Positions 1 to 27,691 of a DNA stretch of 64,000 nt are shown here, piece by piece. Every line of letters begins with the position of its first letter. Within the stretch, counting starts at the first letter, position 1. The notes below the pieces were generated by a model, which saw nothing but the letters and a program-made list of their open reading frames with translations, did no database searches and was not told the origin of the DNA. The translations under genes were made by a program, and so were the position numbers. The stretch spans positions 22,969 to 86,968 of the forward strand of contig CALVWF010000006.1 of NCBI GenBank assembly GCA_944364615.1, written 5' to 3'. The stretch comes from an uncultured Clostridia bacterium (GTDB lineage Bacteria; Bacillota; Clostridia; Christensenellales; CAG-314).

Positions 1-1312
1 TTTGCTTTGCTGTTGCAGTAAAACAGGACACGGGGATGGGTTTACGCTCGGTTTTCTTATCCTTTTGAAGTTTGCGAATGAAATCACCGATATACAAATA
101 ATCTACTCTGAAGTCCTGCCCCCAAGCGGAGAAACAATGCGCTTCATCGATAACAAAACGCACGATATTGCGCGACATCAAGAGTCGCTCTATCGTTTTC
201 GAGCGAAGCTGTTCGGGGGATATGTAAAGCAGAGATGCTTTGCCATTTTTAACTCTTTCTATAGCATCTGCGCGTTCAATGGGATTCATCATTCCATTGA
301 TGGTTACTGCACCTTCGATGCCTTTCTCCACAAGGTTGTCAACTTGGTCTTTCATTAACGATTGAAGAGGAGAAATTACAACAGTAAGACCATGTGTTGC
401 TCTCCCTGCCATCAGCGCAGGCAATTGGAATGTAATTGACTTTCCACCACCTGTCGGGAATACGGCAAGAAGCGATTTTCCATCAACGGCTGCTTGTGCG
501 GCGACTTCTTGCAACGAGATCTCATCACCGGCAAACTTACGGAAGCCGGGATAACCGAAGAAGGTTTTCAGCCACTTATGAATATCAAGAGCGTTGCGAC
601 AATATTCGCAATGTTCTTCACATGGCGTGTTACATAAAAATTTTATAACATTCTCAATTTTGGGATAGTTATAGAGAAGCCAAGGCGGTGTGGTAGAATA
701 ATGATCATCACAACCGACCAAAGCAAGCGCATACGCCAATTCTACGGGATAGTGCTTTATAAGAACATCTAAATCTGCGTTTGCACATATCCTTCTTGAA
801 AATTCATCACTGATCAGTTGTGCTAAGTTATATTTATAGGGTTTGAAATCCACATAGTCAAAAAATCCTTGGAATTCCGGATGGCTATAAAGTAAACCGC
901 AATATATCATTTTGCGATTCTTTGACAATTGATAAAACGCATTCACTTCGTCATAAAACAAGGTGGATGCTTTATGGCTGTCGTTGACGGGATTATTTAA
1001 TTCTTCGACTTGAAGCTTATCATCCTTAAGCAGTTTGTGATAAGGACGCTTTGGGAACATCAGAGGAGAAAGATAGAGTGTATCTATCACCTTCTGATGA
1101 AGAGCATCCCCTATATGTGGTTTGATATGCTTCATATCGTGGTGAACTACATTGTGACCGCATAGAAACTCCACACCTGCCACGAAGGCACAAAACTCCG
1201 ACACGGAAGGAGAATGAAAAACAGTTTTGTCACCTCTGACCGCGCCTATATCAAGTATTTTGTTTTCATGAACACTTATTTCTGTGTCGAAGAATACTAT
1301 GCTTTTTGCCAT
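1..1312 (-). CDS. RecQ-family helicase with N-terminal DEDD-exonuclease-like domain; runs off the left edge (absent from the ORF track)
   Basis: Manual minus-strand translation from ATG at 1312 (GGAGG RBS): MAKSIVFFDTE...CGHNVVHHD...IDTLYLS, then RecQ motifs PTGGGKS, VISPLQSLMKDQV, YISPE, IDEAHCFSAWGQDFR, FTATA at the edge. Confidence 0.9.
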   Translation of the reverse strand, partial: MAKSIVFFDTEISVHENKILDIGAVRGDKTVFHSPSVSEFCAFVAGVEFLCGHNVVHHDMKHIKPHIGDALHQKVIDTLYLSPLMFPKRPYHKLLKDDKLQVEELNNPVNDSHKASTLFYDEVNAFYQLSKNRKMIYCGLLYSHPEFQGFFDYVDFKPYKYNLAQLISDEFSRRICANADLDVLIKHYPVELAYALALVGCDDHYSTTPPWLLYNYPKIENVIKFLCNTPCEEHCEYCRNALDIHKWLKTFFGYPGFRKFAGDEISLQEVAAQAAVDGKSLLAVFPTGGGKSITFQLPALMAGRATHGLTVVISPLQSLMKDQVDNLVEKGIEGAVTINGMMNPIERADAIERVKNGKASLLYISPEQLRSKTIERLLMSRNIVRFVIDEAHCFSAWGQDFRVDYLYIGDFIRKLQKDKKTERKPIPVSCFTATAKQ

Positions 1313-1334
1313 ATTGGCCTCCAGATTGTTCTTA

Positions 1335-2270
1335 TCAAATGATTCTTACAATTGCGTGCAAGTTATCTATTATAAATTTTTGCGCTTTGATATTGTAAAG
1401 AGCAATGCTATACTCACCGTTGCTACCGCTTCTGCGCTCAACGCTAATACCCATTTCACTACCAATATCGCTTGGCAATTTATAGTTCTTTGCATCAAGC
1501 GAAACCACTTTCAGAATTCCAACGCTCAATAACCACTCTGTAATATCCGTCGCTTTTAATTTTGCTGCGCTCGTGTTTGTCTTTAACGCATTTATTCTGC
1601 CAGTAATCTGACTTATCATCAAAGGTGTTTCGGAGAATTCAAATTTTTCAAGCTCTGCTTGAGTGATTTCAAATGGCTCGGATGGCTTGCGTTTAACTGT
1701 TGTATTCGAATATGCTACAGAAGTTTTAGAGAATTCGATAATTTCCGAAAGATGCTCTCTTATGAAGCGTTGAGCGTTCACATTGCATCGAACATAGTAT
1801 TTTGCTCGGCCGTTGTCCTTTATTACCTCATCCGTGGTAATACCGAGATTAACTCCTTTTTGTGTAGGGCGTTTGGTCATCTTATTATCGCTCGTTGCAA
1901 TTCTCGTCAAATATCCTTCATGCAAAAGCCAATTGTTTATCTCGGTTGCGGTAAATTTACGAGTTGATCTTAACGCATCGTTTACTCGCTTTGCAAAAGT
2001 GCTTATGCCCACTCTCAACGCAGAGCATTCGATTCTTGTAAGAACATCGGGCGTGACGATCCACTCGTTAGTCTTATACATTTCTGTCAAGGCAGACGGA
2101 TTTTCAATAATTTTAGATAAGATATCCGCTACATATAAAAAGCATTTGGATAGTCTTGGGTTAAGCGCAACCTCGCCGTCGGGGATAAGTGTGCCGTCAG
2201 TAGGATCAATACCGATGGCTAATTTATCAATAAATGATTTTGCGTAAGCAATCTTTTCTATTTCTGTCAT
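1335..2270 (-). CDS. Hypothetical protein with two tandem antirepressor-C/winged-helix-like repeats
   Basis: 311-aa ORF with GAGG RBS; internal repeat ATEINNWLLHEGYL..PTQKGVNLGI..NAQRFI vs ATDITEWLLSVGIL..PSDIGSEMGI..KAQKFI. Confidence 0.6.
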   Translation of the reverse strand: MTEIEKIAYAKSFIDKLAIGIDPTDGTLIPDGEVALNPRLSKCFLYVADILSKIIENPSALTEMYKTNEWIVTPDVLTRIECSALRVGISTFAKRVNDALRSTRKFTATEINNWLLHEGYLTRIATSDNKMTKRPTQKGVNLGITTDEVIKDNGRAKYYVRCNVNAQRFIREHLSEIIEFSKTSVAYSNTTVKRKPSEPFEITQAELEKFEFSETPLMISQITGRINALKTNTSAAKLKATDITEWLLSVGILKVVSLDAKNYKLPSDIGSEMGISVERRSGSNGEYSIALYNIKAQKFIIDNLHAIVRII

Positions 2271-2282
2271 AACAAACCTCTA

Positions 2283-2492
2283 TTAATTCTCAATATCAGT
2301 GATTTCAACAATATCGCTGATATCGCATTTTAAAGCAGTACAAATACGAACAAGGGTTTCAGTTGAAACATTTTCATCTTTGTTGAGCTTAGTTAATGTT
2401 CCACGACTGATTCCGGCTTGTTCAAGCAAATCCTTCTTTTTCATTTTTCGATCTATTAAAAGCTTCCATAGTTTGTTGTAACAAATAGCCAT
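2283..2492 (-). CDS. Cro/C1-type HTH transcriptional regulator
   Basis: YNKLWKLLIDRKMKKKDL..AGIS..TL.KL..ENVS...L.RIC.AL.CDI.DI, typical of small Firmicutes Xre proteins; GAGG RBS. Confidence 0.9.
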   Translation of the reverse strand: MAICYNKLWKLLIDRKMKKKDLLEQAGISRGTLTKLNKDENVSTETLVRICTALKCDISDIVEITDIEN

Positions 2493-2701
2493 GTTGCACC
2501 TCGAAATATAAATCTTTTATACCATTATACGTCATCGCATAAATAATTACAAGAGATTTGCTGTTTTGTTTTGAATTTTTGATTGATTTGTGGTCAAAAA
2601 GTCTATTTTCGTGTGAATAATTCCTAAACAATTGATATTTCAGTCCAGTATGAAAAAGATAATCCATCACAGACTCTTGTCCATGATGGATTTCCTTGCT
2701 T

Positions 2702-2968
2702 TCACTTAATTAAGGTTTCTATCGCTATCTGCATTCCTAATTTGAAGGCATACTCGAAGATGGCTGCTTCGGCGAGGCTCATGTACTCGCTCCAGCAATC
2801 GTGGAACTTTTCGAATGTTTCTTTCTGCTCGTCCGTGAAGCTCTTTTCTAAGTCTTCGTGATGCCTTGCCATGTAGCCGAGAAGTTCATTCATCTCCTTC
2901 GAGTTGGTTCGGCTGTCCTCTTGCGGAATGATGTTTCCGTGCCATAGTTCTTTTATTGGGTTGTCCAT
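2702..2968 (-). CDS. Small acidic hypothetical protein (DUF6809-like), common in Firmicutes mobile regions
   Basis: GGAGG RBS before ATG 2968; IKELWHGNI.P.E...F.YAFKLG pattern. Confidence 0.65.
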   Translation of the reverse strand: MDNPIKELWHGNIIPQEDSRTNSKEMNELLGYMARHHEDLEKSFTDEQKETFEKFHDCWSEYMSLAEAAIFEYAFKLGMQIAIETLIK

Positions 2969-2992
2969 GTGTTGCACCTCCTGTTAGCACAA

Positions 2993-3040
2993 CACACTAC
3001 CACAGAAAGAGAGAAAAGTCCAGTTAACAAACTGTTAACT
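2993..3040 (-). promoter_or_regulatory. sigma-A-like promoter (TGGACT-17-TAGTGT) with adjacent palindrome AGTTAACA-AAC-TGTTAACT
   Basis: Read on the minus strand upstream of the 2968 start; palindrome at 3022-3040 abuts the -35. Confidence 0.45.
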
Positions 3041-3050
3041 CTCACCGCAT

Positions 3051-3094
3051 AGAAAAAAGTCATTACAGAATTCCTTCCGTAATGACTTTTTTCT
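3051..3094. terminator. Bidirectional intrinsic terminator-like hairpin
   Basis: AGAAAAAAGTCATTAC ... GTAATGACTTTTTTCT inverted repeat. Confidence 0.7.
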
Positions 3095-3495
3095 TAAGCC
3101 CATCTGATCCGTATCGGTCTTTACCCAGTGTTCACTTTTTGTCCCTATGAGTAAAAACACTTCGTTTCGTTGCTATTTGTTTGAGAGTTTTGTTATTCAA
3201 TAAGTAGTTAAAACTGAGGGCAAATAAATACCCCCGTCAGACAAGTTTGAGAGTTTTGTTATTCAATAAGTAGTTAAAACTCAAGCGGAAAGTAATCGAT
3301 ACCGCTTTTTGTTTGAGAGTTTTGTTATTCAATAAGTAGTTAAAACCTCATCATGTCGAAGTAACCAATGCTTGCGGTTTGAGAGTTTTGTTATTCAATA
3401 AGTAGTTAAAACTCTGCATACGAGCGTCGCCGTTGTCCACGTGTTTGAGAGTTTTGTTATTCAATAAGTAGTTAAAACATTTTTGCCTAAATCAG

Positions 3496-3527
3496 TGTTA
3501 TAATTTGGAAAAACACCGAAAAAGGAG
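3496..3527 (+). promoter_or_regulatory. Extended -10 promoter (TGTTATAAT) and RBS (AAAGGAG) inside the giant spacer
   Basis: TGnTATAAT at 3496-3504; AAAGGAG at 3521-3527, 6 nt before ATG 3534. Confidence 0.7.
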
Positions 3528-3533
3528 CGAATT

Positions 3534-3902
3534 ATGAAAAAATATTTCACAAAACGCAACATTCTTATCGTGGCGACAATCTTATGCTTTTTGATTGCAA
3601 TTTTGTTTGCTTTTGTGCCGTCTTGGTATTGGCAAGTTCTCACATATGATACACGCACACACGAATTTAAAATGTTGGGTTTTGGGTACCCGATAGCGTT
3701 AGCAAAATATGGTTGTATTGTTGTTTACAGGTTGGTTATTGTGTGCATATTTGCAATGTTGTTTCTCGTGTGTTCTATTATGCTTTCAATTGACATTTTC
3801 AAGCAATACCGACAAGAACACCCACGCAAGCCGACATACAAGCAACGCATTGCCGAACTTGAAAAGCAAATAGCCGAATTAAAGCAAAACACTAAGGACT
3901 GA
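3534..3902 (+). CDS. 122-aa two-TM membrane protein with C-terminal coiled coil (moron-like), inside the CRISPR array
   Basis: Strong RBS; two hydrophobic segments; QRIAELEKQIAELKQ heptads; followed by a terminator. Confidence 0.8.
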   Translation: MKKYFTKRNILIVATILCFLIAILFAFVPSWYWQVLTYDTRTHEFKMLGFGYPIALAKYGCIVVYRLVIVCIFAMLFLVCSIMLSIDIFKQYRQEHPRKPTYKQRIAELEKQIAELKQNTKD

Positions 3903-3919
3903 AAAACAGTCCTTTTTTT
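3894..3919 (+). terminator. Intrinsic terminator inside the giant spacer
   Basis: AAGGACTG-AAAAA-CAGTCCTT followed by a T run, between two convergent ORFs. Confidence 0.8.
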
Positions 3920-4349
3920 ATTGCTCTATGATGTTTTCCACTACTGCCCCTAACTGCGTGTTGAATTGCTGTTCGTCAAGGCTTTCGCCCACTACGTTTG
4001 TAAACTCGTCCACAATGTCGGGATACACGGTGTCGCTGTTGTCCACAAAGTCAAAGGTTATCACGCTGAACGTGTTGCCGTCCGCTGATATAGTCAGCCG
4101 TGGTATGCAGTCAATCACCGCCCCGATGTCGCAAAGACACTCCCACAAGGTTGTTTGCGTGTTCCACTCAAACTGTGGGGAAATTGTTTCGGTCAGCACT
4201 GCTACTACGTCCATGTCGGTGGTAACGGTGTAAAGTGGCGCACCGCCCGAGGCGGTCAAAGGCGTTACCGCTAAAAGCCGTTGCAACACCGCTAAAAGGC
4301 TCAAACGCTCGGCGGTATCTTCGGGCTGTGTCACCTTAAAACCGTCAAT
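3918..4349 (-). pseudogene. 5'-truncated gene fragment, possibly a phage structural (tail/baseplate-like) protein C-terminus
   Basis: Frame is open to the repeat boundary at 4349 (IDGFKVTQPED...) and stops only inside the repeat; no RBS; acidic, Thr/Val-rich composition. Phage assignment is inference. Confidence 0.55.
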
Positions 4350-4449
4350 GTTTGAGAGTTTTGTTATTCAATAAGTAGTTAAAACTAAAAATCTGCGACT
4401 ACTTTGATATAAGTGGTTTGAGAATTTTGTTATTGCGGAGCAACGTAAA

Positions 4450-4481
4450 AAATGCCTGCAACTGTACAGTTACAGGCATTT
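4450..4481. terminator. Hairpin terminator between the CRISPR trailer and the TIR-FtsK gene
   Basis: AAATGCCTG...CAGGCATTT inverted repeat. Confidence 0.7.
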
Positions 4482-4482
4482 G

Positions 4483-6336
4483 TCAGTTGGTGTCGGACAA
4501 AATTTTCTTGTATTTTTCAAGATCTTCGGGAGGAATGGTCAATTTGCCGCTTTCCTTGTCGGCATAGCCTCTTTGACACATCATTTCGAATATACGCACA
4601 GCCTTGGAAAATCCTATAGACAAAGTGCGCTGCAATGTGCTTACGGTAGCCTTGTTGCAAGACGCCATCTTCACCATTGCGTCGGCAAAAACTTCTTCCG
4701 GAAGTAAGTCGACTGTTTTTAACGGCAGTTGTTCCTCTTCTAAAGATTCCTGCCGCGACGCGCTCCGTCGCAAAATCTCCTCGGGATTGTTTAACCGTTT
4801 AATCGTCTTTTCGATATACTTGTCGTCAGTCGAAAGCGCCTGCAACCGTACGGCAGGGGTAAAAGGCTGAACATACAGTGTATCGCAACCGTCAATCAGT
4901 TGCGTTGCTTCCGACGAATCGGTCAGCACGAAAGAATTTTTAGGGTCGCTGCATTTAAACGCTATCCTGCAGATGAAATTTGCTTTTACAAGACCTGAAA
5001 TTTTAGAAACGTCCTCACCGCCCACAGCGACAAGCGTGTAAATGCCCGCGGCGCGACTTTTTGTCAGAATCTTGGAAAGCAGTTGATCGAGCGTTTTGTC
5101 GGGCACATAGCCGTTAATGACAAATACAATGTACGGCAATGCCTTCCGCGCCGTCTTGTTGTAATCGGCAAGACATCTGCAAATATTTCCCGAAGCGCTT
5201 GCCTCAAGCATCAGCGAATACCTCGACTCCATTTCTTTGGTAAGGTCGAGTATACTTGTCGCCAGATCGGACACTTTGTTTGCGTTTGCTATGTAGACGT
5301 TCGGAGCCTTGTCAAACACTTTCAAATCCCCCGTACCGTCAAACAGACGTATAGACACTTCGGAAGGTGAATAGTTGTCAATTACATATGTCACGGCGCT
5401 CTTGACAAATTCGGAAATGTCCCGTGCGCTGTCACCCCCGACAAGAATGTGAGGACAACTGTTCAACACCGCCTTTTCCACAACGTTGTCTGCCGTTACT
5501 CCCAGCGGAATACTCAGTTCCGCCGATTTGCCTTCGAATTTTTGCACATATTGCGTATACTCGGGAGCCAACGCATATTCTAACGGTGCCTGTACCACGA
5601 AGACGTTTGAACGTACCAGATAATGCACGGTAGCATTGCCTTGGCGCAATTGCGCAGCCAATTTGTTTGTAAGTAAGTTTACATTCACCACGTCCCGTTC
5701 CACTTTTCCGCAGGCATTCTTTACAGATGAAAAGTTTCTGTGATTCATCTGCCGGTCAAACAGAATATTAAATCCGTCTTCCGGTTCCACCGTGTATTCG
5801 GCAACGGACGGCGAACGCATATTACACTTTACGCCCTGAATTTTTATACCGTTTTCGAAAAAGAACGTAGTCAGAAACTTCATTGCCTCAACGGGATCGC
5901 CCATATTGATCTCTTGTGGCAACGACTGTCCCGCCACTCCTGCAAGTTCCGCAATTACCTTTAAAACCTTCTTCATTTGCGGAGAGTTCTCGTCAACCGA
6001 AGGGAGCGACACTATTTGCTGGTCGCACAAAAAAAACTGAAAGGTCGAATTTAACATTATGTCTTCCAGTTGCAGAGGAACAATCGTCTTGCGGTAATTG
6101 ATTGCCCTTTCCACTTCCTTGGACACCCACGGAGATTGCTGGGCGTCTTTTGTAAGCAACAGCACCACACAGGCGCAGTTTTTCAAAGCGTCGGGAATTA
6201 CCTCCGCATAAGACGAGCCCGCGGGAATATCGTAAGGAGCCATCCATGTATCGATTTTCCTGCGACTCAACAGTGAACGCGTTGCGTCCGCCGCCTTCTG
6301 GTTTTTAGTGCTGTAACTGATAAAAACGTAACCCAT
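4483..6336 (-). CDS. TIR domain fused to a degenerate FtsK/SpoIIIE motor domain and an FtsK gamma domain
   Basis: N-term VFISYS...SPWVSKEV (TIR); PHILVGG, RAAGI, KANFICRIAF (FtsK); STLQRTLSIGFSKAVRIFEMM (gamma wHTH). Confidence 0.85.
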   Translation of the reverse strand: MGYVFISYSTKNQKAADATRSLLSRRKIDTWMAPYDIPAGSSYAEVIPDALKNCACVVLLLTKDAQQSPWVSKEVERAINYRKTIVPLQLEDIMLNSTFQFFLCDQQIVSLPSVDENSPQMKKVLKVIAELAGVAGQSLPQEINMGDPVEAMKFLTTFFFENGIKIQGVKCNMRSPSVAEYTVEPEDGFNILFDRQMNHRNFSSVKNACGKVERDVVNVNLLTNKLAAQLRQGNATVHYLVRSNVFVVQAPLEYALAPEYTQYVQKFEGKSAELSIPLGVTADNVVEKAVLNSCPHILVGGDSARDISEFVKSAVTYVIDNYSPSEVSIRLFDGTGDLKVFDKAPNVYIANANKVSDLATSILDLTKEMESRYSLMLEASASGNICRCLADYNKTARKALPYIVFVINGYVPDKTLDQLLSKILTKSRAAGIYTLVAVGGEDVSKISGLVKANFICRIAFKCSDPKNSFVLTDSSEATQLIDGCDTLYVQPFTPAVRLQALSTDDKYIEKTIKRLNNPEEILRRSASRQESLEEEQLPLKTVDLLPEEVFADAMVKMASCNKATVSTLQRTLSIGFSKAVRIFEMMCQRGYADKESGKLTIPPEDLEKYKKILSDTN

Positions 6337-25957: not shown

Positions 25958-26749
25958 TTAGAAAAACAATGTGACGTACCAGTCAATTACGTAAGAGGCG
26001 AAAAATATTGCAAACGCTCCGCCCCAGGCAAGATATGGCGCAAACGGATATTCGGGTTTGGTGAACATATCTTTGTTTTTGTTTAAAGTATTTTGCAGGG
26101 CTATATCGAACAGCGCGACGACGATGCCGGCTATCACTGCCACCGAAACATATTTCCAGCCCAGGAGAAATCCCAAAGACGCCATAAGTTTGACATCGGC
26201 AAATCCCATTCCTTCTCTGCCGAAAACCACGAAAGACAAGCCGTAAAAAGCGAGGAAAAATCCGCCTGCCCCCAACAACCCCCACAGTTTGGACAGGATG
26301 TCCGCTTCGTCGAACGCCCACACGGAAAGGATTGCCACAACGGCAAGAGCAATCTGCAGACTGTCGGGAATGAACAGGTTGTCATAATCGCACAAAGACA
26401 TTGTCAACAGCACGGACAAAGTCACGGCGAATACGGAACACAGGAACAAATCGTCGTAATACATAAAGGCGCAACACAGCCACAGCAGTCCGTTGAGCAG
26501 TTCCACCCAGAAATACCTCGACGAGTACGGTCTGTGACAGTAACGGCATTTTCCGCCGAGAAAAATGTAACTAAACAACGGAATGTTGTCACGCCAAGCG
26601 AGTTTGTGACCGCACGAAGTGCAGTGGGACGGAGGATTGGCTATACTCATACCGCGCGGAACACGGTAGACAACCACATTTAAAAAACTGCCTACACACA
26701 CACCGAGCAGCGCGAACATTACAGAGACGGTGACAAAAACAAAGTCCAT
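25958..26749 (-). CDS. pilD: Prepilin peptidase/methyltransferase
   Basis: GSFLNVVVYRVP, CxxC pairs, GMGFADVK, PFAPYL. Confidence 0.95.
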   Translation of the reverse strand: MDFVFVTVSVMFALLGVCVGSFLNVVVYRVPRGMSIANPPSHCTSCGHKLAWRDNIPLFSYIFLGGKCRYCHRPYSSRYFWVELLNGLLWLCCAFMYYDDLFLCSVFAVTLSVLLTMSLCDYDNLFIPDSLQIALAVVAILSVWAFDEADILSKLWGLLGAGGFFLAFYGLSFVVFGREGMGFADVKLMASLGFLLGWKYVSVAVIAGIVVALFDIALQNTLNKNKDMFTKPEYPFAPYLAWGGAFAIFFASYVIDWYVTLFF

Positions 26750-26757
26750 AAATCCCC

Positions 26758-27120
26758 CTACAACAGTCCGTACTGATAGGTTACAACCTGTACTTCACCG
26801 CCGACGTTTGCGACGGAGACTATGAGGTGAACGACCTGCCCTATTTTTACCACAAGATCGTTACCGCTTTCCGTCCATTGAAACCCGAAGTCGTTGTCGC
26901 CGTACTTCTGTGCAAGATCGATGTCTGTCTTGCCCTGCTTGTTGGAAATAAAGGAAGTGGCGATGTCGTCCAGAAAAGACTTGCGTTCGAGATATTCGCG
27001 GTACTTGTCCGCCTTGTCCGTACCTACGGTGACGGAAAGCAGTATCACCACGATAAACGCCGCCACAAGCGCCATCATCAGCAGAACGTATTCTATTGTC
27101 AGACCTTTTTTAGAAAACAT
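26758..27120 (-). CDS. Minor pilin lacking Glu5 (PilX/GspK-like)
   Basis: KKG|LTIEY followed by a hydrophobic helix, inside the pilus operon. Confidence 0.6.
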   Translation of the reverse strand: MFSKKGLTIEYVLLMMALVAAFIVVILLSVTVGTDKADKYREYLERKSFLDDIATSFISNKQGKTDIDLAQKYGDNDFGFQWTESGNDLVVKIGQVVHLIVSVANVGGEVQVVTYQYGLL

Positions 27121-27121
27121 T

Positions 27122-27691
27122 CTACAGCACCTCCGAAAGAGATACCAACCGATAGTTGGAGCCTGTCACCGCCGAAATGGACAAAGCGTAGGAATTGTCC
27201 GCATTGACCGCAATGTTTACCGTCATTGTGTATTTGACGGCGTCTATAAGATAGGTAAATGAATACAAGGCGTCGCTGTCTGCGGAACGGGAAACGGTAA
27301 CGCCGTATCTGACGTCTTCCTGGGACAAAGGAGCGTCGGCAACGTAGTCTTTGTTGACGAAAAACTGCCAATTTTCTTCGCCCGTACCCACGCATTGTTC
27401 AAATTTGAACTGAAAATCGGTAACGCCCGCAACAAATGCAAACTTTCCGTTGAAATCGGCAAGCACGTCAAAAGTACCCGACGCGTCTTCCGTACGCTGT
27501 GAAAGAGCGCTGCGAAGACTGTCTCTTACCGAATAGGCAACAGACCACGCCGAGATGTGCTGAGCACGATTGTCCTGCAAAGTCACGCTTACGTTGCACG
27601 CCATAAAACCGGCAACGGACAAAATGACTATCAATGCCATGGACACTATGACTTCCGCAAGGGAAAATGCTTTGTTGAGTTTGAGTTTCAT
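27122..27691 (-). CDS. Minor pilin
   Basis: KA|FSLAEVIVS type IV N-methylation motif. Confidence 0.85.
   Translation of the reverse strand: MKLKLNKAFSLAEVIVSMALIVILSVAGFMACNVSVTLQDNRAQHISAWSVAYSVRDSLRSALSQRTEDASGTFDVLADFNGKFAFVAGVTDFQFKFEQCVGTGEENWQFFVNKDYVADAPLSQEDVRYGVTVSRSADSDALYSFTYLIDAVKYTMTVNIAVNADNSYALSISAVTGSNYRLVSLSEVL

Follow-up and report, generated by a model that had tools for sequence, protein, structure and literature searches.

In canonical type II-A acquisition, Cas1-Cas2-Csn2, with Cas9 selecting the PAM, place foreign DNA exactly between complete repeats, and the array that results is polarised and ends in a degenerate terminal repeat. Casposons rely on Cas1-solo integrases that move kilobase DNA, and they possess terminal inverted repeats together with their own Cas1 and polymerase. 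Integron cassettes are promoterless and stand in series, with an IntI integrase and attI/attC sites. In S. pyogenes, phage DNA interrupts a type II-A array in the case of phiAP1.1, described as a whole prophage that enters by means of an integrase and an attP sharing 8 identical bp with the repeat, which is thereby split into attL and attR (bioRxiv 10.1101/2020.10.09.333658). Insertion sequences, transposons and the “long spacers” that contain degenerate repeats are a further class, reported by array finders as an over-long spacer or a split array (PMC4869251). Lastly, recombination between spacers and their targets in phages has been documented by Varble et al. (2019), as recounted in a review (PMC8616872), according to which 30-nt identity between spacer and target anchors the recombination of phage and array, with transducing particles that move CRISPR loci as the outcome. 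A stable chromosomal relic of the DNA between two protospacers is not described in the literature searched.

The array considered here comes from a chicken-gut bacterium and is a decayed, type II-A-like array. Within the window, the whole 64,000-nucleotide stretch that was analysed (window positions are contig C6 positions minus 22968, the repeats having C6 coordinates from 26147 to 27318), six exact copies of a 36-nt repeat begin at 3179, 3245, 3311, 3377, 3443 and 4350. The first five alternate with spacers S1-S4 on the plus strand (3179-3478), and the sixth opens a plus-strand segment (4350-4451) that continues with spacer S6 (4386-4415) and a seventh, terminal repeat (4416-4451), which is degenerate (63% over 43 nt, with 18 of its first 19 nt matching). 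Repeats of the GTTT...AAAC type, 36 nt long, with spacers of about 30 nt and a degenerate terminal copy are characteristic of type II-A, and 26 of the 36 nt, including the first 11, are common to the T. denticola II-A repeat as tabulated in PMC4607530. All spacers measure 30 nt with the sole exception of the segment between repeats five and six, which spans 871 bp (3479-4349, plus strand). As a ruler for spacer length, inter-repeat gaps were measured in other genomes, in 11 arrays whose repeats are related to this one; 29-31 nt was found in 207 of the 209 gaps (29 nt in two, 30 nt in 202 and 31 nt in three), the remaining two being runs of N, and the readable spacers thus conform in 207 of 207 cases. 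The 871-bp segment is far outside this range. It shares with a canonical spacer its exact junctions and an intact duplicated repeat; unlike one, it is 871 bp rather than 29-31 nt long and bears a gene.

The repeat itself is rare. The exact sequence has no match in IMG/VR or in genome_contigs, it was not found with up to three mismatches in the 81 other genomes of the family that were searched, and in an order-level sample it was matched in only one of 400 other genomes, G376. In the latter, a repeat identical at 33-34 of 36 positions (2-3 nt differ) accompanies a full II-A operon of cas9-cas1-cas2-csn2. The syntenic site of a sister species (G001) contains no CRISPR and a 1224-aa repeat protein instead. 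Upstream of the first repeat lies a remnant of the leader with an eroded leader-repeat junction (3093-3178, plus strand), of which approximately 3110-3151 can be aligned to its counterpart in the intact G376 locus; the junction here lies 27 nt before the first perfect repeat, whereas in related leaders ATTTGAG abuts repeat 1.

The set of adjacent cas9, cas1, cas2 and csn2 genes by which a II-A locus is recognised does not accompany the array here. What is left of cas9 is its first 38 codons (C6:18593-18709), identical to the N-terminus of the G376 Cas9 at 26 of 38 residues and matching TIGR01865 with an E-value of 5e-6, and an island of about 7.4 kb with a helicase occupies the place of the rest of the operon. 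Neither Cas1 nor Cas2 was found in the genome, which is 93% complete. Immediately upstream of where cas9 begins, the minus strand holds a candidate tracrRNA, a stretch complementary to the repeat over its full length. The position fits; the anti-repeat duplex, at -19.9 kcal/mol, is unexceptional in energy when set against 60 random 300-nt chunks (mean -15.8, best -20.9). With only 38 codons of cas9 left and neither cas1 nor cas2 found, the array is best described as an orphan relic of a II-A locus, and since cas9 is cut at codon 38 and the operon has been replaced, it is now inert in this genome. Its ancestor probably had the adaptation machinery, given a relative with an intact II-A operon and a repeat that differs by only 2-3 nt.

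An over-long spacer in a metagenome-derived genome of 14 contigs invites the explanation that an assembler, at a spacer identical to a phage protospacer, was led into a co-occurring phage and back again, and the left repeat is indeed unbridged by contigs built from 31-mers. However, such contigs break at the multi-copy repeat, which is why none joins the left repeat to spacer 4, and the remaining evidence makes a chimera very improbable. A 930-nt contig from run X1 spans 3449-4378 without a single difference, with a depth of 15.1 in the insert and 15.8 and 15.3 in its flanks; a 931-nt contig from another study (X5) spans 3449-4379, again with no differences; and in a third study (X7) a single contig runs from 3806 to 4900 through the right repeat, spacer 6 and the terminal repeat into the chromosomal flank. 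The contigs of the first two studies are unbranched, beginning 30 nt within one repeat and ending 29-30 nt within the next, with all 871 bp between. No loose contig ends were seen at 3508 or 4320 in the four sequencing runs examined, parts of the low-depth runs X7 and X10 that were without cover not having been used for inference. The insert is also single-copy in the 1.69-Mb genome. It is thus genuine and inherited, and no artefact of assembly. The original prediction had proposed these same tests, namely even coverage and contigs that cross a repeat together with more than 30 bp of insert, and both came out in favour of its reading of 871 bp in place of 30 between perfect repeats; the repeats are exact, three studies share the insert, and its single copy disposes of a multicopy element. 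In X5, the same insert and right flank occur, but without the left flank and S1-S4, and the contig adjacent to the repeat ends in sequence resembling the leader consensus of related arrays, so that this other strain seems, by that resemblance, to keep its leader. Being common to strains that differ at the leader end, the insert is old relative to their divergence.

As to what the insert contains, comparison with a metagenome contig, L015, indicates that it is contiguous tailed-phage DNA, an internal fragment of a tail-tip region comprising the 3' part of a split tail-hub gene and a convergent moron. L015, the only metagenome contig that gives context, is collinear with the whole insert (92% over 3800-4349 and 83% over 3479-3620; 88% identical at the protein level) and runs past both ends with genes of its own, which have no Pfam or PHROG match; at neither breakpoint does it have a repeat-like or att-like sequence. 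A closer donor was not detected in the phage collection by blastn or tblastn, and IMG/VR gave no match when queried with peptides from the two ORFs or with the opening 30 nt of the insert. On the minus strand, 3918-4349 encodes P0001, codons 120-262 of a 262-codon gene truncated at its 5' end. These C-terminal 143 codons form a frame without stops right up to the repeat, at whose edge it is cut exactly; upstream, within the repeat, the frame meets a stop codon. The missing part of the gene occurs nowhere in the genome, which counts further against a chimera. Full-length 262-aa homologues exist (P0003, P0004 and P0005, at 98, 93 and 92% identity); P0003, encoded on a 15.7-kb contig and without a match in genome_contigs, is 98% identical to P0001 over its residues 120-262 and continues across the right breakpoint. 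Because neither P0001 nor its full-length homologues have a sequence match in Pfam or PHROG, the hub assignment is by fold only. The predicted model of P0003 (pLDDT 77) resembles gp27/VgrG/Tal hubs: each of its top 12 PDB matches is a tail or injection hub (E from 1.6e-4, TM 0.24-0.43), and of its 41 BFVD matches with E at or below 1e-3 (best 9.8e-9) those with names are tail, hub or Gp37-like proteins. By this model, P0001 is a fragment of a baseplate hub or Tal N-terminal domain of the gp27-like kind.

The second gene is intact. P0002 (3534-3902, plus strand) encodes a predicted 122-aa membrane protein with a coiled-coil-like C-terminal tail, here classed as a phage moron, and L015 carries a homologue at the same convergent position. 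An AAAGGAG ribosome-binding site stands just before the ATG at 3534, a hairpin predicted to terminate transcription in both directions lies between the convergent genes (3894-3914), and TGTTATAAT at 3496-3504 is a putative promoter by virtue of its extended -10 consensus; a simple sigma-70 scan does not list it, as the site has no -35. The gene is thus predicted to be expressible from sequence signals alone. P0002 matches no Pfam family, PHROG hints of “membrane protein” are weak (E of at least 0.018), the Atlas search yielded only generic helical-membrane look-alikes below the bar, and none of its 13 homologues (39-97% identical) is named. A superinfection-exclusion-type moron would be our guess at its most likely role, and the only present activity that might be conjectured for the locus is production of this protein from its own promoter. 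The intact frame is no evidence of selection, since the truncated hub frame likewise lacks stops. The original prediction, made before any database search, had listed the complete gene with its ribosome-binding site and terminator, the convergent ORF cut at the repeat edge, the phage-like origin of the DNA and the lack of a transposase or terminal inverted repeats. The gene layout is as it had stated, the collinearity of L015, the hub fold and the full-length homologues bear out the phage source, and domain and end searches confirmed the rest.

A complete gene with its own terminator and a putative promoter between two repeats might suggest that the array works as a recurrent, integron-like platform for gene capture, as the original prediction went on to propose. 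This part of it did not hold up, and we consider it highly unlikely: a single insert is present, about half of it is a truncated and useless gene, each of the 207 readable spacers of the 11 related arrays has a normal length, no integrase domain was found within the array or next to it, a recombinase and any evident attC-like sites are lacking, the gene has a putative promoter of its own where cassettes have none, and the cas operon has been lost here. A mobile-element relic, whether an IS or MITE or a decayed prophage that had integrated site-specifically into the repeat after the manner of phiAP1.1, is scarcely more credible. Integration into type II-A repeats is documented for that phage (bioRxiv 10.1101/2020.10.09.333658), and a phage-type integrase is encoded about 14 kb upstream on the contig. 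However, both repeats that flank the insert are complete and identical, not attL/attR hybrids, and the 871 bp are an internal tail-gene fragment without att-like ends, with L015 collinear past either end and P0003 crossing the right breakpoint; two deletion endpoints falling exactly on repeat edges would be improbable. Of the marks of an IS or transposon (transposase, terminal inverted repeats, target-site duplication, multiple copies) none is present, a Pfam search of the insert gave no transposase or integrase domain, and no degenerate copy of the repeat is hidden inside it.

Two routes by which phage DNA may have come to lie between intact repeats are left to be weighed, both of them already named in the original prediction, and the evidence leans modestly toward the first. 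In this account, which we favour tentatively, two adjacent spacers would have recombined by homology with their protospacers in a single phage genome. This model proposes that the ancestral array contained neighbouring 30-nt spacers, A (3479-3508, plus strand) and B (4320-4349, plus strand), which would both derive from one strand of a single phage, where they lay at a distance of 811 bp; the first of these putative former spacers, which holds TGTTATAAT, is identical to L015 at 30 of 30 positions and the second at 29 of 30. Recombination between spacers and protospacers would then have exchanged the 36-nt repeat between A and B for the intervening phage DNA. The phage may have entered at spacer A in a Campbell-type event, after which protospacer B and spacer B recombined and what separated them was deleted, or a double crossover may have taken place; either route would leave complete repeats on both sides. 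The 30-nt anchors described in the review of Varble et al. would give exactly these junctions (PMC8616872); in that case the products are transducing particles and not a relic in a chromosome. In a cas-proficient cell, the last 20 nt and the downstream repeat could still have matured into a working crRNA. In this genome, truncation of cas9 and replacement of the operon came later than the insert. The donor flanks, with no similarity to the repeat, and the strict ruler of related arrays are in keeping with recombination, as is the lack of a transposase or integrase and of inverted repeats at the insert ends. Against it, two crossovers on 30-bp homologies would be rare, and arrays with A and B as separate spacers were not found among those searched, just as loose ends at 3508 and 4320 are missing from the four runs.

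The main rival is that a phage fragment of 871 bp was inserted in one piece by Cas1-Cas2 acting together with Cas9 and Csn2, with duplication of what was then the leader-proximal repeat as for a normal spacer, possibly by a casposase-like, ruler-independent full-site integration or by two complexes each holding one end. Were this so, the locus would resemble casposons in that a Cas1-family integrase inserted kilobase DNA and duplicated its target, although the insert has neither terminal inverted repeats nor Cas1 or polymerase. Cas1-Cas2 integration characteristically leaves exact repeat-spacer junctions with complete, identical repeats on both sides, as seen here, and the intact operon of the relative suggests that the machinery was probably present in the ancestor. 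The insert lies second from the trailer end and is common to strains whose leader ends differ, which fits a piece acquired early at the leader end and then displaced inward by S1-S4. However, the same ruler, 207 of 207 readable related spacers at 29-31 nt, speaks against it, and for S. pyogenes Cas1-Cas2 in vitro the second strand transfer, that of the repeat-spacer step, is reported to be inhibited when prespacer mimics are longer (PMC8390005). Gene-sized or kilobase spacers are likewise not described in the literature searched, the scope of which did not extend to supplements and any tables of odd spacers in them. Aberrant adaptation is for these reasons possible but rather doubtful.

The sequences next to the two putative former spacers bear on both accounts. 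Exactly 30 nt into the insert stands AAAAAC (3509-3514), and the L015 flank after spacer B reads CAGAAC; both fit NARAAC, a motif at only 0.2-0.7% of positions, though one noticed post hoc and, on the right, taken from an 88%-identical relative and not from the true donor. The T. denticola Cas9 has been reported to use NAAAAC (PMC4197953). Recombination between two former spacers would account for a PAM-like motif both at +31 and after the last base of the insert, whereas capture of a single long fragment gives no reason for one exactly 30 nt from the left end. On the other hand, a PAM-like donor flank by the 3' end would fit Cas9-guided choice of that end, and two acquisition complexes, one per end, would also put a PAM at +31. 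Weak protospacer candidates for S2 (27/30) and S4 (26/30), each at E 0.3, have the flanks AACACT and CGAAGT, neither of which conforms to NARAAC; what they have in common with the flanks of A and B is only NRNA, expected by chance at about 15% per site. The nearest Cas9 of solved structure to that of G376 is FrCas9, whose PAM, NRTA, is matched by the flank of neither A nor B. IMG/VR scans with parts of S4 and S2 gave no matches, S6 matched no protospacer, the 36 spacers of G376 matched no phage, and 211 pooled spacers gave no convincing protospacer among the sequences searched (best 24/30). A 14/15 match of S4 inside the insert was set aside as chance, its 5' half being mismatched and many S4 12-14-mers occurring genome-wide.

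In its widest form, the proposal would be that an adaptation complex, or an array acting as a landing pad for homology, is able in nature to admit phage DNA on the kilobase scale together with a functioning gene, the product being stably inherited, and its boldest version would be casposase-like integration of 871 bp by Cas1-Cas2 in vivo; we regard this as conceivable yet improbable. If it is true, the last 20 nt may yield a functional crRNA, and the membrane moron would add a second, innate form of phage exclusion. Array finders with a maximum spacer length will split or miss loci of this kind. CRISPR arrays have been treated as fixed-length memory stores. An inherited “spacer” of 871 bp with exact junctions shows that larger pieces can be admitted: rare as the relic is, it indicates that the phage DNA an array can receive goes far beyond what the normal machinery permits. 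If recombination is the true origin, spacers would be recombination anchors that pull in the phage DNA between two targets; if aberrant integration is, the integrase would be able to bypass its ruler. Both readings matter for the evolution of arrays, for the entry of phage genes into defence islands and for the limits within which Cas1-Cas2 recording tools work.

The window spans C6:22969-86968 of the source genome (1.69 Mb, 14 contigs, 93% complete). The array in it, the genome's only one with its 36-nt repeat, has six exact repeat copies, starting at window positions 3179, 3245, 3311, 3377, 3443 and 4350, and ends in a degenerate terminal repeat at 4416-4451. Spacers S1-S4 and S6 are each 30 nt long, and the gap between repeats 5 and 6 measures 871 bp (3479-4349). 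In a control pooling 11 arrays with related repeats from another family of the same order, 207 of 209 inter-repeat gaps were 29-31 nt and the remaining two were runs of N; the 871-bp insert is therefore a true outlier to a ruler that is not lax. The array is a decayed type II-A array, of which the 871-bp member has the junctions of a spacer but not the length. Runs holding the locus amount to 20 rows from 11 studies, mostly labelled chicken gut metagenome, of which 8 contain half or more of the sampled words. Logan contigs from four runs (X1, X5, X7 and X10) were aligned over window 2900-4900. The gap between perfect repeats, as first noted, is borne out by repeat-insert-repeat contigs with 0 differences from X1 (930 nt, 3449-4378) and, in a second study, X5 (931 nt, 3449-4379). 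A single contig from X7 (third study) begins at 3806 and crosses the right repeat, S6 and the terminal repeat to reach the flank, and X10 yields error-free pieces of the insert. An assembly chimera through spacer-protospacer identity would require contigs to end or branch at 3508 or 4320; in the four aligned runs none does, so this explanation is rejected. The proposed comparison of depth gave no sharp difference (X1 insert contig 15.1 vs. 15.8 in the left flank and 15.3 in the right), and a multicopy mobile element is countered by a copy number of one in the genome. Linkage of the insert to S4 is taken from the source assembly alone, because 31-mer contigs cannot span the left repeat.

The contents of the insert identify it as an internal piece of the tail-tip region of a tailed phage (or tailocin), comprising a truncated hub gene and a complete moron. 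On the plus strand, an extended -10 element (TGTTATAAT, 3496-3504) and an AAAGGAG ribosome-binding site, both read in the sequence, precede a 122-aa ORF (3534-3902) whose product combines hydrophobic segments with a C-terminal tail of heptad-like pattern; the complete gene with ribosome-binding site and terminator that had been described is thus present. Its 13 relatives (39-97% identity) include none that is named. A bidirectional hairpin terminator (3894-3914) lies between this frame and a convergent minus-strand frame of 143 codons (3918-4349), which reaches the last base before the repeat and, upstream of it, meets a stop inside the repeat. This frame corresponds to residues 120-262 of 262-aa metagenome proteins (P0003, 98%; P0004, 93%; P0005, 92%), confirming an ORF cut at the repeat boundary with 143 of 262 codons left; its more distant relatives are the N-termini of ~900-aa proteins. 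Neither the insert proteins nor the full-length hub homologues have Pfam or PHROG profile matches. An AlphaFold model of P0003 (25 homologues in the alignment, pLDDT 77) was compared with the PDB, where the best 12 matches are all tail or injection-system hubs (E from 1.6e-4, TM 0.24-0.43), including the eCIS hub, the phage P1 baseplate, the MuSo2 43-kDa tail protein, VgrG, T4 gp27, phage NF5 Tal and the phi812 hub; of 41 matches in BFVD at E <= 1e-3, those named are tail, minor tail, Gp37-like and gp27 proteins. L015, a 3.9-kb metagenome contig, encodes in order a 149-aa ORF, a 262-aa hub, a convergent 124-aa membrane gene, and 200-aa and 473-aa ORFs. It aligns with the insert end to end (92% over 3800-4349, 83% over 3479-3620, the first 67 nt identical) and runs on at both sides, so the insert is an internal fragment; beyond both ends, L015 has no likeness to the CRISPR repeat. 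This collinearity and the hub fold of P0003 uphold the foreign, phage-like origin. A comparison of L015:498-3803 and proteins P0023-P0025 shows that the tail hub is one ~900-aa protein in some phages and is split in L015 into ORFs of 262, 200 and 473 aa, the first two of which have the membrane moron, in reverse, between them.

Several routes of entry were considered and set aside. Site-specific prophage integration of the phiAP1.1 type (bioRxiv 10.1101/2020.10.09.333658) is rejected, as the repeats are intact and the donor breakpoints have no att-like sequence, and so is recombination through phage-borne repeats, as no repeat-like sequence occurs at the breakpoints in L015. Hidden degenerate repeats, a cause of long spacers elsewhere (PMC4869251), were ruled out within the insert. 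IS insertion fails because the insert, as originally noted, has no transposon features, and no terminal inverted repeats were found at its ends. Two models produce the exact structure, and both had been put forward: integration of a long phage fragment by Cas1-Cas2, and recombination between spacers and protospacers. The evidence leans to the second, which we hold tentatively, at a little under an even chance. The array would first have held neighbouring spacers A (3479-3508) and B (4320-4349), with targets on one phage; A and B would then have recombined with their protospacers, swapping the repeat between them for the 811 bp separating the targets. Phage targets are known to recombine with spacers (PMC8616872). 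AAAAAC starts at insert base 31 and the L015 flank past the last insert base reads CAGAAC, both fitting NARAAC (0.2-0.7% of positions), a candidate PAM motif noticed post hoc, with the right flank read from an 88% relative. The Treponema denticola Cas9 PAM is reported as NAAAAC (PMC4197953), and its II-A repeat is the nearest published repeat encountered (26/36, the first 11 identical; PMC4607530). Recombination is favoured because a PAM-like motif exactly 30 nt from the left end is unexplained by integration of a single long fragment, and because related arrays keep a strict ruler (207 of 207 readable spacers at 29-31 nt) and longer prespacers fail at second strand transfer in vitro (PMC8390005). 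A two-complex version of long integration would, however, likewise put a PAM at +31, and long integration is retained as a rather unlikely explanation. The lean to recombination is further weakened because the solved Cas9 nearest to that of G376, a relative with an intact locus, is FrCas9, whose PAM (NRTA) fits neither insert flank, because the flanks of weak S2 and S4 protospacer candidates share only NRNA with those of the insert, and because the motif was post hoc and partly a relative's. The other listed rivals are together improbable, and the remainder is left to mechanisms not conceived here.

Of the cas genes, a cas9 stump survives (C6:18593-18709), ~7.5 kb upstream of the array and ~4.3 kb left of the window start, consisting of the first 38 codons (MQKFFIGLDIGT...) and then a TAG stop. 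It is identical at 26 of 38 positions to the N-terminus of G376 Cas9 (1338 aa), and among solved structures it is best matched by a 1372-aa Cas9. A repeat-complementary stretch immediately upstream of it, on the other strand (within C6:18520-18710), is a candidate tracrRNA anti-repeat with a duplex energy that is not exceptional. No Cas1 or Cas2 was found in the 93% complete source genome. In G376, which belongs to a different family of the order, cas9-cas1-cas2-csn2 is followed by 37 repeats differing from those of the array at 2-3 positions, which supports a type II-A origin. In place of the remainder of the operon there are ~7.4 kb of genes on the minus strand: an AAA_25 fragment, a 1605-aa protein in which a UvrD-type helicase is joined to a DEAD/Helicase_C module, a 311-aa ORF assigned to no family, a Cro/C1-type HTH protein and a DUF6809 protein. 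The helicase cassette (C6:19463-24280, window 2-2977), at the former cas position, looks like a defence-island cassette. Directly right of the array is a minus-strand gene (4483-6336) that is a candidate for TIR-based defence; its 617-aa product begins with a TIR domain and further contains an ATPase core of the FtsK/SpoIIIE type and the DNA-binding FtsK-gamma domain. Some 14 kb upstream of the array there is a phage integrase gene of the tyrosine-recombinase type (C6:11538-12713). The interval from the GNAT/LPG-synthase gene to trxB-nrdD is a variable island; in the sister species (G001:C13:57154-63023) it has no CRISPR and encodes two proteins instead, one of 1224 aa with internal repeats of 1.25 kb and one of 541 aa. 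At the array's left end (3143-3178), TATGAG is followed by 27 nt (TAAAAAC...) and then the first perfect repeat; in related arrays the leader ends in ATTTGAG with repeat 1 directly after, so the junction is eroded in the source genome, the 27 nt possibly being a collapsed repeat and a shortened spacer. The strain in X5 shares the insert, S6 and the right flank with the source genome but not the left flank or S1-S4. A 1222-nt contig from X5 (ends at window 3372-3406) joins the repeat to sequence absent from the source genome, and the final 30 nt of this contig are similar to the leader consensus seen in related arrays; judged by that resemblance, this strain seems to retain the leader and perhaps cas genes. 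The shared insert and leader-like contig end therefore lead us to read the insert as older than the strain divergence, having arisen in a cas-proficient ancestor, with the cas operon lost later in the source genome's lineage.

For S2 (3281-3310) and S4 (3413-3442), even the best matches are weak; they fall in two records of gut viruses, each ~5 kb long, one match in a Microviridae major capsid gene (26/30 overall, 22 contiguous) and the other in a record without taxonomy (27/30). There are hints that the array formerly targeted microviruses besides tailed phages. In the source genome it is an orphan and probably inert. In the literature searched, supplements lying outside the search, no publication was found that describes a non-IS insert of gene size with repeats exactly at both ends. 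The insert works like staphylococcal spacer-anchored recombination, or else in casposon style; it belongs to neither of these described classes. Given type II-A processing, its last 20 nt and the repeat could still form a crRNA against the phage in a carrier that is cas-proficient. The 122-aa gene has all expression signals by sequence, and by analogy with the membrane morons of temperate phages its product may exclude related phages, a guess and a rather doubtful one. That the gene is intact does not speak for selection, since the hub fragment, though useless, is just as intact and differs by only 2% from a sampled phage protein. The 871-bp insert, although a real and rare find that informs on mechanism, is a single relic.
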